Shown here piece by piece: positions 1 through 10,910 of a stretch of DNA of 10,910 nt. A model generated the notes under the pieces. The model made no database searches. It was not told where the DNA came from and saw only the letters and a list, made by a program, of their open reading frames with translations. Origin of the DNA: a virus (taxonomy: Duplodnaviria; Heunggongvirae; Uroviricota; Caudoviricetes); IMG/VR virus record IMGVR_UViG_2859827302_000011, one strand, 5' to 3'. The position numbers and the translations under genes were made by a program. The number at the start of each line of letters is the position of its first letter. The first letter of the stretch is position 1.

Positions 1-504
1 TTACTGATAGTGTTTTATGTTCAGATAATGCCCGATGACCTTGTCATGCAGCTCCACCGATTTTGAGAACGACAGTGACTTCCGTCCCAGCCTTGCCAGA
101 TGTTGTCTCAGATTCAGATTATGTCGCTCAATGCGCTGAGTGTAACGCTTGCTGATAACGTGCAGCTTTCCCTTCAGGCGTGATTCATACAGCGGCCAGC
201 CATCCGTCATCCATACCACGACCTCAAAGGCCGACAGCAGGCTCAGAAGACGCTCCAGTGTGGCCAGAGTGCGTTCACCGAAGACGTGCGCCACAACCGT
301 CCTCCGTATCCTGTCATACGCGTAAAACAGCCAGCGCTGACGTGATTTAGCACCGACGTAGCCCCACTGTTCGTCCATTTCAGCGCAGACAATCACATCA
401 CTGCCCGGTTGTATGCGCGAGGTTACCGACTGCGGCCTGAGTTTTTTAAGTGACGTAAAACCGTGTTGAGGCCAACGCCCATAATGCGTGCACTGGCACG
501 ACAT
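1..504 (-). CDS. insB: IS1 InsB reading frame (transposase moiety, expressed as InsAB' fusion by -1 frameshift)
   Basis: ORF track 167-aa translation ends ...[15 protein letters not shown], characteristic of IS1 InsB; the stop codon is the reverse complement of bases 1-3. Confidence 0.85.
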
Positions 505-698
505 CCGACGCCATTCATGGCCATATCAATGATTTTCTGGTGCGTACCGGGCTGAGAGGCGGTGTAAGTGAACTGTAGTTGCCATGTTTTACGGCAATGA
601 GAGCAGAGATAGCGCTGATGTCCGGCAGTGCTTTTGCCGTTACGCACCACGCCTTCAGTAGCGGAGCAGGAAGGGCATCTGATGGAAATGGAAGCCAC
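423..698 (-). CDS. insA: IS1 InsA (transposition inhibitor / DNA-binding protein)
   Basis: 91-aa translation [43 protein letters not shown]... matches IS1 InsA, including its zinc-finger Cys pairs. Confidence 0.9.
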
Positions 699-833
699 GC
701 AAGCACCTTAAAATCACCATCATACACTAAATCAGTAAGTTGGCAGCATTACCGTAATTTTCGAATTAATAATAAATCAACATATCATTTCACGCTCCGA
801 TTTTCTGTCGGAGGCGAAACTGCGGCTATTCAT

Positions 834-1139
834 ATGCACGAAAAAGAGAATCTTGCTGGAGCGTTCTGGCTCGTTTTGCTGATCATCGCAGGTTGGGGCG
901 GTCTGGTCCGCTACCTGATAGATGTGAAGCAGAGTAAAGCAACGTGGAGTTGGATAAATGCTCTGGCTCAGATAGTGGTATCAGGATTCACCGGTGTTAT
1001 TGGTGGCCTGATCAGCATCGAAAGTGGATTCAGTATTTACATGATTCTCGCGACAGCGGGGATTAGTGGTGCGATGGGTTCGGTTGCACTGACGTACTTC
1101 TGGGAACGACTGACAGGGGTGAAAAATGCAAAATCTTAA
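834..1139 (+). CDS. Putative phage holin (about 101 aa, three predicted transmembrane segments)
   Basis: ATG at 834 is the first start codon after the IS1 end. Hydrophobic stretches AGAFWLVLLIIAGWGGLV, WINALAQIVVSGFTGVIGGLI and FSIYMILATAGISGAMGSVALTYF. The stop at 1137-1139 overlaps the endolysin start at 1126, the usual holin-endolysin arrangement. No recognisable similarity to lambda S. The 579-833 part of the track ORF is read-through into IS1. Confidence 0.55.
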   Translation: MHEKENLAGAFWLVLLIIAGWGGLVRYLIDVKQSKATWSWINALAQIVVSGFTGVIGGLISIESGFSIYMILATAGISGAMGSVALTYFWERLTGVKNAKS

Positions 1140-1382
1140 TCCTCAGCGTAAAGCTTTCCTCGATATGGTGGCATGGTCAGAAGGAACGGATAACGGGCGA
1201 CAACCGACACGTAACCACGGTTATGATATTATTGTCGGTGGTGAACTCTTCACTGATTACTCCGATCACCCTCGCAAACTTGTCACGCTAAACCCCAAAC
1301 TCAAATCAACAGCTGCAGGCCGTTATCAACTTCTTTCACGCTGGTGGGATGCTTACCGCAAGCAGCTTGGGCTGAAAGACTT
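1126..1382 (+). pseudogene. R: Lambda R-type endolysin (lytic transglycosylase), 3' truncated by IS911 after about codon 86
   Basis: MQNLNPQRKAFLDMVAWSEGTDNGRQPTRNHGYDIIVGGELFTDYSDHPRKLVTLNPKLKSTAAGRYQLLSRWWDAYRKQLGLKDF closely matches the N-terminal half of lambda R as I recall it. The frame then runs into the IS911 left end (tgaagtgg... from 1383) and stops at 1398, so about 70 C-terminal residues are missing. Confidence 0.85.
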
Positions 1383-1454
1383 TGAAGTGGCACACTGAAT
1401 TTGGCCACCTGAACAGAGGTGATATGCTCACCTCAGAACAACACAGGTGCTCCA

Positions 1455-1757
1455 ATGAAAAAAAGAAATTTTAGCGCAGAGTTTAAACGCGAATCCGCTC
1501 AACTGGTTGTTGACCAGAAATACACGGTGGCAGATGCCGCCAAAGCTATGGATGTTGGCCTTTCCACAATGACAAGATGGGTCAAACAACTGCGTGATGA
1601 GCGTCAGGGCAAAACACCAAAAGCCTCTCCGATAACACCAGAACAAATCGAAATACGTAAGCTGAGGAAAAAGCTACAACGCATTGAAATGGAGAATGAA
1701 ATATTAAAAAAGGCTACCGCGCTCTTGATGTCAGACTCCCTGAACTGTTCTCGATAA
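1455..1757 (+). CDS. orfA: IS911 OrfA (helix-turn-helix / leucine-zipper regulatory protein)
   Basis: [92 protein letters not shown]... matches IS911 OrfA; the ATG at 1455 sits inside the 1419-1757 track ORF. Confidence 0.9.
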
Positions 1758-2623
1758 TCGGGAAACTCAGAGCGCATTATCCTGTGGTCACACTCTGCCA
1801 AGTGTTCGGGGTTCATCGCAGCAGCTACAGATACTGGAAAAACCGTCCTGAAAAACCAGACGGCAGACGGGCTGTATTACGCAGTCAGGTACTTGAGCTA
1901 CATGGCATCAGCCATGGTTCGGCCGGAGCAAGAAGCATCGCCACAATGGCAACCCGGAGAGGCTACCAGATGGGACGCTGGCTTGCTGGCAGGCTCATGA
2001 AAGAGCTGGGGCTGGTCAGCTGTCAGCAGCCGACTCACCGGTATAAACGTGGTGGTCATGAACATGTTGCTATCCCTAACTACCTTGAAAGGCAGTTCGC
2101 CGTGACCGAGCCAAATCAGGTGTGGTGCGGTGATGTGACCTGTATCTGGACGGGTAAGCGCTGGGCGTACCTCGCCGTTGTTCTCGACCTGTTCGCAAGA
2201 AAACCAGTGGGCTGGGCCATGTCGTTCTCGCCGGACAGCAGGCTCACCATGAAAGCGCTGGAAATGGCATGGGAAACCCGTGGTAAGCCCGGCGGGGTGA
2301 TGTTCCACAGCGATCAGGGCAGTCATTATACGAGCAGGCAGTTCCGGCAGTTATTGTGGCGATACCAGATCAGACAGAGTATGAGCCGGCGCGGAAACTG
2401 CTGGGATAACAGCCCAATGGAACGCTTCTTCAGGAGTCTGAAGAACGAATGGATGCCGGTGGTGGGTTACGTAAGCTTCAGCGAGGCAGCTCACGCCATA
2501 ACGGACTATATCGTTGGATATTACAGCGCACTAAGACCGCACGAATATAACGGTGGGTTACCCCCAAACGAATCGGAAAATCGATACTGGAAAAACTCTA
2601 ACTCGGTGGCCAGTTTTTGTTGA
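1706..2623 (+). CDS. orfB: IS911 OrfB frame (DDE transposase catalytic domain), made as an OrfAB fusion by programmed -1 frameshift at A AAA AAG (1706-1712)
   Basis: The -1 frame relative to orfA is open through 2623 and encodes an IS3-family catalytic domain (...[33 protein letters not shown]...[10 protein letters not shown]...). The slippery motif tta-aaa-aag is in the orfA frame. The GTG at 1784 used by the track is probably not the biological start. Confidence 0.85.
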
Positions 2624-9697: not shown

Positions 9698-9710
9698 GTG
9701 GAGAACGAGC

Positions 9711-10463
9711 ATGAACCTTGAAGCCTTACCGAAATATTACTCCCCGAAATCTCCAAAACTGAGCGATGACGCACCGGCGACAGGCTCTGGTGGTTTAACG
9801 ATTACGGATGTGATGGCTGCGCAGGGGATGGTGCAGTCGAAAGCACCGCTTGGGTTTGCCTTATTCCTGGCAAAAGTTGGTGTTCAGGATCCTCAGTTTG
9901 CGATTGAAGGTCTGCTCAATTACGCGATGGCACTGGATAACCCGACATTGAATAAATTGAGTGAAGAAACCCGGCTACAGATCATTCCTTACCTTGTGAA
10001 TTTTGCCTTTGCTGATTATTCTAGGTCTGCGGCAAGTAAGGCTCGCTGTGAGCATTGTGCTGGTACTGGATTTCATAATGTATTGCGCGAGGTGGTGAAA
10101 CACTCCAGAAGCGGGGAATCTGTTATCAAGGAAGAGTGGGTGAAGGAACTATGTCAGCATTGTCATGGTAAGGGAGAAGTCAGCACAGCGTGCAGAGGGT
10201 GTAAGGGTAAAGGTATTGTCCTGGATGAAAAAAGGACCCGGCTTCATGGCACGCCTGTTTATAAGATTTGTGGGCGTTGCAATGGAAACCGGTTTAGCCG
10301 TTTACCAACTACACTGGCACGACGTCATGTCCAGAAGCTGGTTCCAGACCTGACTGATTATCAGTGGTACAAAGGATATGCAGACGTAATTGATAAACTA
10401 GTAACAAAGTGCTGGCAGGAAGAAGCATATGCTGAAACACAATTGAGAAAGGTGACGAGATAA
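9711..10463 (+). CDS. Q: Late-gene antiterminator Q, phage 82 / QuuQ type (250 aa)
   Basis: The N-terminus (KYYSPKSPKLSDDAPATGSGGLTITDVMAAQGM) and C-terminus (LTDYQWYKGYADVIDKLVTKCWQEEAYAETQLRKVTR) match phage 82 Q as I recall it; central Cys-rich zinc-binding region; ribosome-binding site GGAGAA upstream; followed by a promoter-terminator pair in the expected late-promoter position. Confidence 0.85.
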   Translation: MNLEALPKYYSPKSPKLSDDAPATGSGGLTITDVMAAQGMVQSKAPLGFALFLAKVGVQDPQFAIEGLLNYAMALDNPTLNKLSEETRLQIIPYLVNFAFADYSRSAASKARCEHCAGTGFHNVLREVVKHSRSGESVIKEEWVKELCQHCHGKGEVSTACRGCKGKGIVLDEKRTRLHGTPVYKICGRCNGNRFSRLPTTLARRHVQKLVPDLTDYQWYKGYADVIDKLVTKCWQEEAYAETQLRKVTR

Positions 10464-10494
10464 GTGATTTTCGCCGAAGATGGCGACATGAAGC

Positions 10495-10523
10495 TTGCAT
10501 TTTTCAAAAAACATGGATAAGAT
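10495..10523 (+). promoter_or_regulatory. Putative Q-dependent late promoter pR' (-35 TTGCAT, 17-bp spacer, -10 TAAGAT)
   Basis: Sigma70-like hexamers at 10495-10500 and 10518-10523, directly after Q; the downstream string ctcaacgatggg resembles the initial transcribed region of the phage 82 late promoter as I recall it. Not verified. Confidence 0.45.
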
Positions 10524-10569
10524 TTTCTCAACGATGGGCTTTGTATGTCTGCCGTTGATAATTTTCACG

Positions 10570-10596
10570 AACCCGCTGTTGAGCGGGTTTTTATTT
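10570..10596 (+). terminator. Rho-independent terminator (putative tR')
   Basis: Perfect 8-bp stem aacccgct / agcgggtt (10570-10577 and 10582-10589) with a 4-nt loop, followed by tttttattt. Confidence 0.7.
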
Positions 10597-10601
10597 ACTT
10601 G

Positions 10602-10910
10602 GGTAATGACTCCAACTTACTGATAGTGTTTTATGTTCAGATAATGCCCGATGACCTTGTCATGCAGCTCCACCGATTTTGAGAACGACAGTGACTTCCG
10701 TCCCAGCCTTGCCAGATGTTGTCTCAGATTCAGATTATGTCGCTCAATGCGCTGAGTGTAACGCTTGCTGATAACGTGCAGCTTTCCCTTCAGGCGTGAT
10801 TCATACAGCGGCCAGCCATCCGTCATCCATACCACGACCTCAAAGGCCGACAGCAGGCTCAGAAGACGCTCCAGTGTGGCCAGAGTGCGTTCACCGAAGA
10901 CGTGCGCCAC
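10602..10910 (-). mobile_element. IS1: IS1 insertion sequence, copy B (only the first 309 bp are in the window), same orientation as copy A
   Basis: Starts with the IS1 terminal repeat GGTAATGACTCCAAC (10602-10616); 10617-10910 is identical to 1-294. Confidence 0.95.
10617..10910 (-). CDS. insB: IS1 InsB reading frame, 3' portion (cut by window edge)
   Basis: The 97-aa translation is identical to the C-terminal part of the InsB frame of copy A. Confidence 0.85.

Follow-up and report, generated by a model that had tools for sequence, protein, structure and literature searches.

A decayed prophage in a Shigella dysenteriae chromosome, probably reordered by successive recombination between IS1 and IS911 copies

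The question raised by this locus is how two directly repeated IS1 copies came to bracket phage DNA. The original prediction, made from the 10,910 nucleotides of the whole stretch analysed here (the window), had noted the shared orientation of the two copies, which we also find, and offered a compound-transposon-like unit, a tandem duplication or amplification, a circular molecule or contig linearised with an IS1 overlap, or an assembly collapse as explanations. Our analysis points elsewhere, and we consider it very probable that a decayed lambdoid prophage was cut up and reordered by homologous recombination between dispersed IS copies in the Shigella dysenteriae chromosome CP026828.1.

Letter for letter, the window is part of that chromosome (CP026828.1 4,258,749-4,269,658, equal to L007 8876-19785), which is a single record of 4,642,274 bp, probably from strain ATCC 12037, and the window is internal to it. 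The single paper citing CP026828 gives the accession in its data-availability section, with no mention of the locus. Bases 1-294 match bases 10617-10910 at 100% identity, as had been described, and both ends of the window fall on 97-aa "DDE_Tnp_IS1" gene calls; the 294-bp extent of the end identity is an artefact of cutting the window at two IS1 gene calls. In genome scans, end repeats of windows cut at gene boundaries may be such artefacts. The features are as follows, with L001 denoting an intact prophage.

1-753, minus strand: IS1 copy A (IS1-A; IS1 positions 16-768; the element begins 15 bp upstream of the window; complete at L025 4538-5305)
1-504 and 423-698, minus strand: insB' and insA of IS1-A, with the A6C frameshift motif intact
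754-1382, plus strand: phage late-region fragment, 100% identical to L001 9977-10605
834-1139, plus strand: holin (PF16083)
1126-1382, plus strand: 5' part of the lysozyme gene (GH104 lysozyme by the L001 annotation; the ORF runs into IS911 to 1398)
1383-2631, plus strand: IS911 (IS3 family), a 100% match to annotated IS911, with orfA 1455-1757 and orfB 1970-2623
2632-3022, plus strand: phage fragment, 5' end of the O-like gene, 99.5% identical to L001 4001-4393
2640-3026, plus strand: replication initiator ORF (lambda O-like, HTH_36, Pfam PF13730)
2928-3017: 15-bp ori-type iterons (repeat family D2/D4)
3023-5463, plus strand: ISEc22 (IS66 family), 99.8% identical to annotated ISEc22, with genes 3115-3495, 3492-3839 and 3888-5426
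5464-10601, plus strand: phage early region, 98.4% identical to L001 4384-9522
5449-6030, plus strand: rest of the O-like gene (O')
6027-6521, plus strand: PerC (Pfam family, as for the six genes that follow)
6521-7174, plus strand: Dam
7171-7497, plus strand: LexA-like
7494-7883, plus strand: RusA
7903-8700, plus strand: KilA-N
8708-9697, plus strand: DUF968
9711-10463, plus strand: antiterminator Q
10569-10590: terminator-like hairpin (terminator scan)
10593-10601: half of an IS1 target duplication, ATTTACTTG (L001 9514-9522)
10602-10910, minus strand: IS1 copy B (IS1-B; IS1 positions 1-309; 459 bp more lie beyond the window; complete at L025 15154-15921)

Phage DNA makes up only ~6.15 kb of the interior (754-1382, 2632-3022 and 5464-10601), and ~3.7 kb is IS911 and ISEc22, in place of the 9.8-kb phage segment first described, a reading that had missed both elements and the permuted phage order. 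Relative to L001 that DNA is circularly permuted, with the holin and truncated lysozyme genes first and the replication-to-Q genes after: window 2631-3023 plus 5463-10601 corresponds to L001 4001-9522, and the holin-lysozyme DNA (window 754-1382), which sits downstream of Q in intact prophages, to L001 9977-10605. Over the region O-PerC-Dam-RusA-KilA-DUF968-Q-holin-lysozyme the phage parts share 95-100% identity with lambdoid prophages of E. coli and Shigella that have an HK97-like late region, such as the E. coli 0H26 prophage and phages SfII and SfV; unlike these relatives, the window keeps just its ~6.15 kb, permuted and broken by three kinds of IS. The prophage is dead: integrase, immunity and structural genes are missing from the window, the O gene is broken, the lysozyme gene is cut short and the lysis genes no longer stand coupled to Q.

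Beyond the cut ends, both IS1 copies are complete, at 768 bp each, in direct orientation and identical at 766 of 768 positions; the identity originally claimed for them holds for the visible 294 bp and fails at IS1 positions 513 and 690 of the complete elements. Each has the ~23-bp terminal inverted repeats of IS1, with ends GGTAATGACTCCAACTTACTGAT... and ...ATCAGTAAGTTGGCAGCATTACC, insA is identical in the two, A6C lies at position 307, and both have an open insB' frame. The variant at position 513 is private to the source strain. At position 690, a G stands where the right end adjoins phage DNA and an A where it adjoins the hyi remnant (hyi'), a pattern expected for hybrid IS1 copies. The 9-bp flanks are AAGGTTAGG (outer, left) and GTAATTTTC (inner) for IS1-A, and ATTTACTTG (inner, left) and CATAAATTC (outer, right) for IS1-B. 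The inner flanks differ, as originally noted, and in the source genome they indeed do not belong together as flanks of one simple insertion; a duplication at the outer ends, which had been proposed as a check, is absent. No two of the four flanks match, and neither copy therefore has the target duplication of a simple insertion, while a diverged IS1 at L006 4120-4887, used as a positive control, has a perfect one, ACCGCTGAG. Both IS1 elements are genuine, distinct and independent complete copies, very probably left at recombination joints.

ISEc22 entered the O-like gene by simple insertion: the 8-bp target duplication AAAAAAGC expected of an IS66-family element lies at 3015-3022 and 5464-5471, and L001 has the uninterrupted empty site, GGCAAAAAAGCGGGTTTT. 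IS911 has unrelated flanks, lysozyme' (lys') on the left and O' on the right, with no target duplication, and none of the left and right junction types seen forms a pair with a 3-bp IS911 duplication. IS911 is the crossover point that joins both prophage halves.

The chromosomal DNA outside the IS1 pair is unique. To the left of IS1-A lies the folD-sfmA intergenic region, followed outward by the core genes folD-ybcJ-ybcI-cysS and matching E. coli K-12 in ascending order to ~557,864 (the folD upstream region), and to the right of IS1-B a 43-aa hyi remnant precedes gcl, allR, allA, allS and selU, matching K-12 in descending order from ~535,814, inside hyi. In K-12 these flanks are 22 kb apart, inverted and not contiguous, and in sister genomes both outer junctions pre-exist separately, ~194 kb apart.

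Sister genomes also hold the other half of the IS1 target duplication. In L004 and L005 the folD-side IS1 has ATTTACTTG on its right, followed by phage DNA from L001 9523 onward, and the 2 kb to the left of this IS1 are identical in L004 and the source. Since the ATTTACTTG left of IS1-B recurs at the right of the sisters' folD-side IS1, the junction sequences point to a single ancestral IS1 insertion downstream of Q that was split later; its site would be L001 9514-9522, in the hairpin tail ~105 nt after Q, and the Q-to-lysis interval is thus the IS1 site, as had been proposed. No genome showed the ancestral simple insertion, with ATTTACTTG on both sides of one IS1, and a search of 5,426 complete E. 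coli genomes returned neither it nor either half-junction. The Q/IS1/hyi' junction was present in 11/11 sister loci checked (L013, L014, L019-L024, L026 and others).

The intermediate state can be read directly in GCA_002968215.1, where ~200 kb of one contig separates the prophage halves and each half stops at its own IS911 copy, the two copies being inverted (1,027,274-1,028,522, plus strand, and 1,228,571-1,229,819, minus strand), with IS1 copies at 1,025,414-1,026,181 (plus strand) and 1,219,833-1,220,600 (minus strand). The sister IS911 junctions, lys'/IS911/ecp-side (plus strand) and rve-fragment/IS911/O' (minus strand), are 200,048 bp apart, and the source IS911 has on its left the junction of one sister copy (lys') and on its right that of the second (O'), which is the exchange of flanks expected of an inversion between inverted IS copies. 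An in-silico recombinant, built from the sister's two loci with a crossover inside IS911, matches the source over 20.6 kb at 99.95-99.98%, and its single discontinuity is a 463-bp deletion adjoining IS1-A. The exact source arrangement is found in one assembly only, and so is the IS1-A/holin junction (a chimeric ORF) that it includes, which a search of other assemblies did not find; all other junctions are present in independent assemblies.

We propose that the history began with insertion of IS1 just downstream of the terminator-like hairpin of Q, which would have produced the ATTTACTTG duplication, together with insertion of ISEc22 into the O-like gene and truncation of both prophage arms by IS911 copies. 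A ~194-kb inversion between the Q-side IS1 and an inverted IS1 between folD and hyi' would then have split the prophage into folD/IS1/hyp-holin-lys' and Q/IS1/hyi'-gcl, the state kept in sister strains. In the source only, a second inversion of ~200 kb between the two inverted IS911 copies may have flipped nearly the same interval back, reuniting the halves in permuted order between IS1 repeats that were now direct. A reciprocal IS911 junction is predicted in the source, rve-fragment/IS911/ecpD' (...GCGAACGTCTGGTTC/IS911/TCCCGAGGTTCACCA...). We infer the order of these events, and the intact simple-insertion ancestor from which they start has never been observed.

On its own, the final structure fits these two inversions and a route by excision and re-integration alike. 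In the latter, the remnant lay between direct IS911 copies, left as a circle by recombination between them and returned by recombination between IS1 copies at folD/IS1/hyi', which predicts the observed permuted order between direct IS1 copies in one lineage step, with the same reciprocal junction, and is compatible with all junction data. However, the starting arrangement was not found in the genomes searched, sister genomes show the two-inversion intermediate instead, with both hybrid IS1 junctions widespread in the lineage, and the circle would have been without a working origin because ISEc22 interrupts the O-like gene and the iteron region; we regard this route as improbable. Somewhat less credible still is a mis-join, in which the true chromosome is sister-like and partners were swapped at the 1.25-kb IS911 repeat. 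The lys'/IS911/O' combination and the IS1-A/holin junction do occur in this one assembly only, but the record is a single 4.64-Mb sequence, which we assume to be a finished long-read assembly that would span a repeat of just 1.25 kb, the private 463-bp deletion and the private IS1 variant at 513 argue that the source is not simply a mis-joined sister copy, and S. dysenteriae does undergo such inversions frequently (PMC8072062). An assembly collapse, as first suggested, fits neither the two differences between the IS1 copies nor the recurrence of all but one of the junctions elsewhere.

In Tn9, two direct IS1 copies surround a passenger. The window resembles it in having two complete, apparently functional direct IS1 copies, with intact terminal repeats, identical insA and the same frameshift motif and insB' frame, around a 9.85-kb passenger segment, and it differs in having no surrounding 9-bp duplication, no second occurrence, no obvious selectable passenger, and outer junctions that predate the unit itself. 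Insertion of such a composite transposon as one unit is refuted by the outer flanks (AAGGTTAGG versus CATAAATTC) and by the K-12 mapping (557,864 and 535,814), which leaves no contiguous empty site; each outer junction already exists separately in sister genomes, the unit was found in no more than one genomic context, and its junctions are absent from the 5,426 complete E. coli genomes. We give this reading, and with it the compound-transposon-like unit of the original prediction, practically no weight. Just as hard to credit, and refuted by the flanks, are tandem duplication or amplification and the linearisation of a circular molecule or contig with an IS1 overlap, readings favoured by the 294-bp terminal identity and by a phage order resembling a circle opened at IS1. 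The window is internal to the chromosome rather than a whole record, different unique core genes lie outside each IS1 (folD versus hyi'-gcl) so that a repeat unit continues on neither side, the IS1 copies differ at two sites, and every phage-encoded protein looked up maps to a single position in that chromosome. One-step intramolecular replicative IS1 transposition of the inversion type, which needs the left flank of IS1-A to equal the right flank of IS1-B, was also rejected, as the two are unequal.

The preferred history by two inversions has ample precedent. Of 114 reconstructed inversions 103 were placed on Shigella branches, where 33 distinguish two S. dysenteriae genomes from each other, and S. 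dysenteriae has the highest inversion counts (Seferbekova et al. 2021, PMC8072062). The locus shares with those cases recombination between IS1 and IS3-family copies that exchanges flanks, IS copies without target duplications, broken synteny and pseudogenes; it does not differ from them in kind and is one specific, previously undescribed instance. It is an ordinary IS-mediated rearrangement of a decayed prophage, a phenomenon already known, and matters little beyond bookkeeping. It does offer a clean illustration, base by base, of how two inversions that follow one another over nearly the same interval, the first with endpoints in IS1 and the second in IS911, would leave a locally permuted prophage remnant as their net product. 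The direct IS repeats left by such inversions mimic a composite transposon or a circular contig, and IS pairs in Shigella should be compared with sister genomes before a transposon or amplification is proposed. It would be surprising if the 11.4-kb IS1-bounded module (Q, Dam, RusA and KilA-N) were a functional pseudo-compound transposon or amplifiable translocatable unit, or if the ~200-kb IS1/IS911-bounded interval flipped recurrently and reversibly in S. dysenteriae; were such flipping true, inversion and re-inversion would be a general route for moving small segments without a net large inversion.

The 463-bp deletion is private to the source. Deletion of adjacent DNA is a classical IS1 activity, and the 463 bp are gone precisely from the end of IS1-A, by comparison with sisters that have that IS1 at an identical left junction. 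IS1-promoted adjacent deletion would be the likeliest cause of this last step, a mechanism we infer from the outcome, which recombination with a second nearby IS1 would give equally. The lost DNA includes a 111-aa hypothetical gene.

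The two IS1 copies at the ends of the window lie in the same orientation, as reading of the element ends bore out, and direct comparison confirmed that bases 1-294 match 10617-10910 at every position. The whole window is contained without change in the Shigella dysenteriae chromosome CP026828.1 (L007 8876-19785; 4,258,749-4,269,658 of 4,642,274 bp), and both of its ends coincide with 97-aa 'DDE_Tnp_IS1' gene calls, so the apparent terminal repeat was created by window bounds that follow these calls. The repeat is genuine, but window cutting set its extent, and the length of 294 bp is biologically meaningless. 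The adjacent accession, NZ_CP026829.1, belongs to a plasmid of S. dysenteriae ATCC 12037, so, judging by the consecutive numbering, the source strain is probably ATCC 12037. In several assemblies of the same batch, the IS1 transposase ORF is called as a 97-aa protein with a GTG start and not as the 167-aa ORF or the InsAB' fusion. In the chromosome, IS1-A (left) and IS1-B (right) are each complete at 768 bp and differ at positions 513 and 690. InsA, the A6C frameshift motif, and the insB' frame are the same in both, so both copies could be active.

Although the original prediction described a single 9.8-kb phage segment between the IS1 copies, comparison with the intact prophage of E. coli 0H26 (L001) resolved the interior into about 6.15 kb of phage DNA and about 3.7 kb of other insertion sequences.

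Order of elements in the window, with L001 as reference for the phage parts.
IS1-A: window 1-753, IS1 positions 16-768
L001 9977-10605: holin and a 5' lysozyme gene fragment, at 100% identity
IS911: window 1383-2631
L001 4001-4393: O-like replication gene (beginning), including its 15-bp iterons
ISEc22: window 3023-5463, present as a simple insertion; 8-bp duplication AAAAAAGC
L001 4384-9522: remainder of O, then PerC, Dam, LexA-like gene, RusA, KilA-N, DUF968, and Q
IS1-B: window 10602-10910, IS1 positions 1-309

The phage DNA is thus circularly permuted, with the lysis genes placed before the replication genes here and after Q in the intact phage.

The chromosome on either side of the IS1 copies was informative about their origin. 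Left of IS1-A lie purK, purE, lpxH, ppiB, cysS, ybcI, ybcJ, and folD, and this flank matches K-12, ascending, to ~557,864, 123 bp upstream of folD. Right of IS1-B lie a 43-aa hyi remnant and then gcl, allR, allA, allS, and selU, in a flank that matches K-12, descending, from ~535,814. Because different, unique core genes stand outside the two copies, the tandem duplication or amplification and the circular molecule or contig overlap that had been put forward are excluded. The 9-bp flanks are AAGGTTAGG and GTAATTTTC for IS1-A and ATTTACTTG and CATAAATTC for IS1-B, left and right, respectively. The inner pair reads as originally quoted and, as was then concluded, does not represent the two sides of one simple insertion. 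No pair matched among the four flanks, outer and inner, which excludes a simple insertion of either copy, the insertion of a whole composite transposon, and intramolecular IS1 transposition in one step. The compound-transposon unit of the original prediction falls in particular on its outer ends, which differed when compared (AAGGTTAGG versus CATAAATTC). As a positive control for the flank test, a perfect 9-bp duplication, ACCGCTGAG, was found around one of two copies of a diverged IS1 variant in S. dysenteriae CP026872 (L006 4120-4887 and 7666-8433), ~91% identical to the IS1 of the window. IS1-B cuts hyi at about codon 35 (L025 15922-16030, outside the window), leaving this lineage with at least one pseudogene in the allantoin/glyoxylate pathway. 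We also observed that, throughout this lineage, the 22-kb block spanning hyi to folD in K-12 has its orientation reversed with respect to gcl (L025 1-4537).

Other S. dysenteriae chromosomes were reached through exact-protein look-ups. Two of these loci, L004 and L005, carry the same folD/IS1 junction, with ATTTACTTG next and L001 sequence from 9523 on after it, and the 2 kb left of the junction are identical between L004 and the source chromosome. The presence of ATTTACTTG (L001 9514-9522) both there and immediately left of IS1-B in the window indicates that a single ancestral insertion of IS1, with the usual 9-bp duplication, has been split between two IS1 copies. The target of that insertion lies ~105 nt after Q, in the T-rich tail of the terminator-like hairpin at 10569-10590, which supports the earlier placement of the IS1 site in the Q-to-lysis interval. 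The hairpin, GAACCCGCTGTTGAGCGGGTTT followed by a T-run (region 10569-10601), is probably the late terminator acted on by Q. The junction of Q, IS1, and truncated hyi was seen in every sister locus examined, so the prophage split is old in this lineage. Both half-junctions were absent from 5,426 complete E. coli genomes. IS1 position 690 tracks the right-hand neighbor, with G beside phage DNA and A beside truncated hyi, a pattern consistent with hybrid IS1 copies.

In the sister genome GCA_002968215.1, both prophage halves are found on one contig.

Prophage halves in GCA_002968215.1 (primes mark truncated genes).
folD, IS1, hyp-holin-lys', IS911, ecp side: IS1 1,025,414-1,026,181; IS911 1,027,274-1,028,522; both + strand
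gcl-hyi', IS1, Q...O', IS911, rve fragment: IS1 1,219,833-1,220,600; IS911 1,228,571-1,229,819; both - strand

The lys'/IS911/O' arrangement of the source takes its left junction from the first IS911 and its right junction from the second. A recombinant predicted in silico by joining the two loci of this genome (L004 to L021) inside IS911 matched 20.6 kb of the source at 99.95-99.98%, with one discontinuity, in which 463 bp carrying a 111-aa hypothetical gene (L001 9514-9976; L004 9166-9628) are missing exactly at the IS1-A end (window 754 junction), in the source strain only.

The simplest account is an IS1 x IS1 inversion, an IS911 x IS911 inversion, and then the 463-bp loss. The first inversion, of ~194 kb, would have split the prophage, and the later one, of ~200 kb and confined to the source strain, would have returned nearly the same interval, leaving the two small pieces of phage DNA in exchanged order, flanked by IS1 copies that now form direct repeats. 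The loss beside IS1-A fits an IS1-promoted adjacent deletion, and the IS911 inversion predicts a reciprocal junction, ...GCGAACGTCTGGTTC, IS911, TCCCGAGGTTCACCA..., in CP026828.1. Excision of an IS911-bounded circle and its re-integration via IS1 x IS1 would yield the same final structure as two inversions, but we consider this route improbable, as the circle would be without a working origin and the starting arrangement required has never been observed, unlike the intermediate of the inversion route. As the exact arrangement is a singleton, the source assembly may have been mis-joined at IS911, but this is unlikely, given a repeat of only 1.25 kb in what we assume to be a finished long-read assembly and the private features of the source, namely the deletion of 463 bp and the variant base at IS1 position 513.

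The inversion account replaces the interpretation of the original prediction. Events of this kind are already known, and the locus is an ordinary outcome of recombination between insertion sequences in a Shigella chromosome, if one that can be reconstructed neatly. It is a case of the well-documented rearrangement by insertion sequences and decay of prophages in Shigella; 103 of 114 reconstructed inversions were placed on Shigella branches, and 33 of these separated two S. dysenteriae genomes (Seferbekova et al., PMC8072062). The IS1-bounded unit is structurally similar to a Tn9-type IS1 composite but lacks two defining traits, an outer target duplication and occurrence at more than one site.

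IS911 junctions (window 1383-2631; L004, L005, L006, L019, L021, L022, and L023) are of two types on the left (lys' and rve fragment) and five or more on the right, which combine differently among S. dysenteriae strains, marking this IS911 copy as a recurrent recombination hub. Another IS interrupts the copy in L020, L024, and L026. ISEc22 (with its duplication, window 3015-5471) directly follows the 15-bp ori-type iterons (2928-3017) of the O-like gene. Many contigs assembled from short reads of unrelated samples, in which the upstream immunity regions are intact, also stop at exactly this O'/ISEc22 point (L033-L040), so this insertion allele is either widespread among related prophages or at a hot spot. 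A second, inverted ISEc22 copy lies ~5 kb left of the IS911/O' junction in GCA_002968215.1 (L021 1-7575), and the left flank of ISEc22 in L019 and L022 is a different PerC-containing region, suggesting additional inversions between ISEc22 copies.
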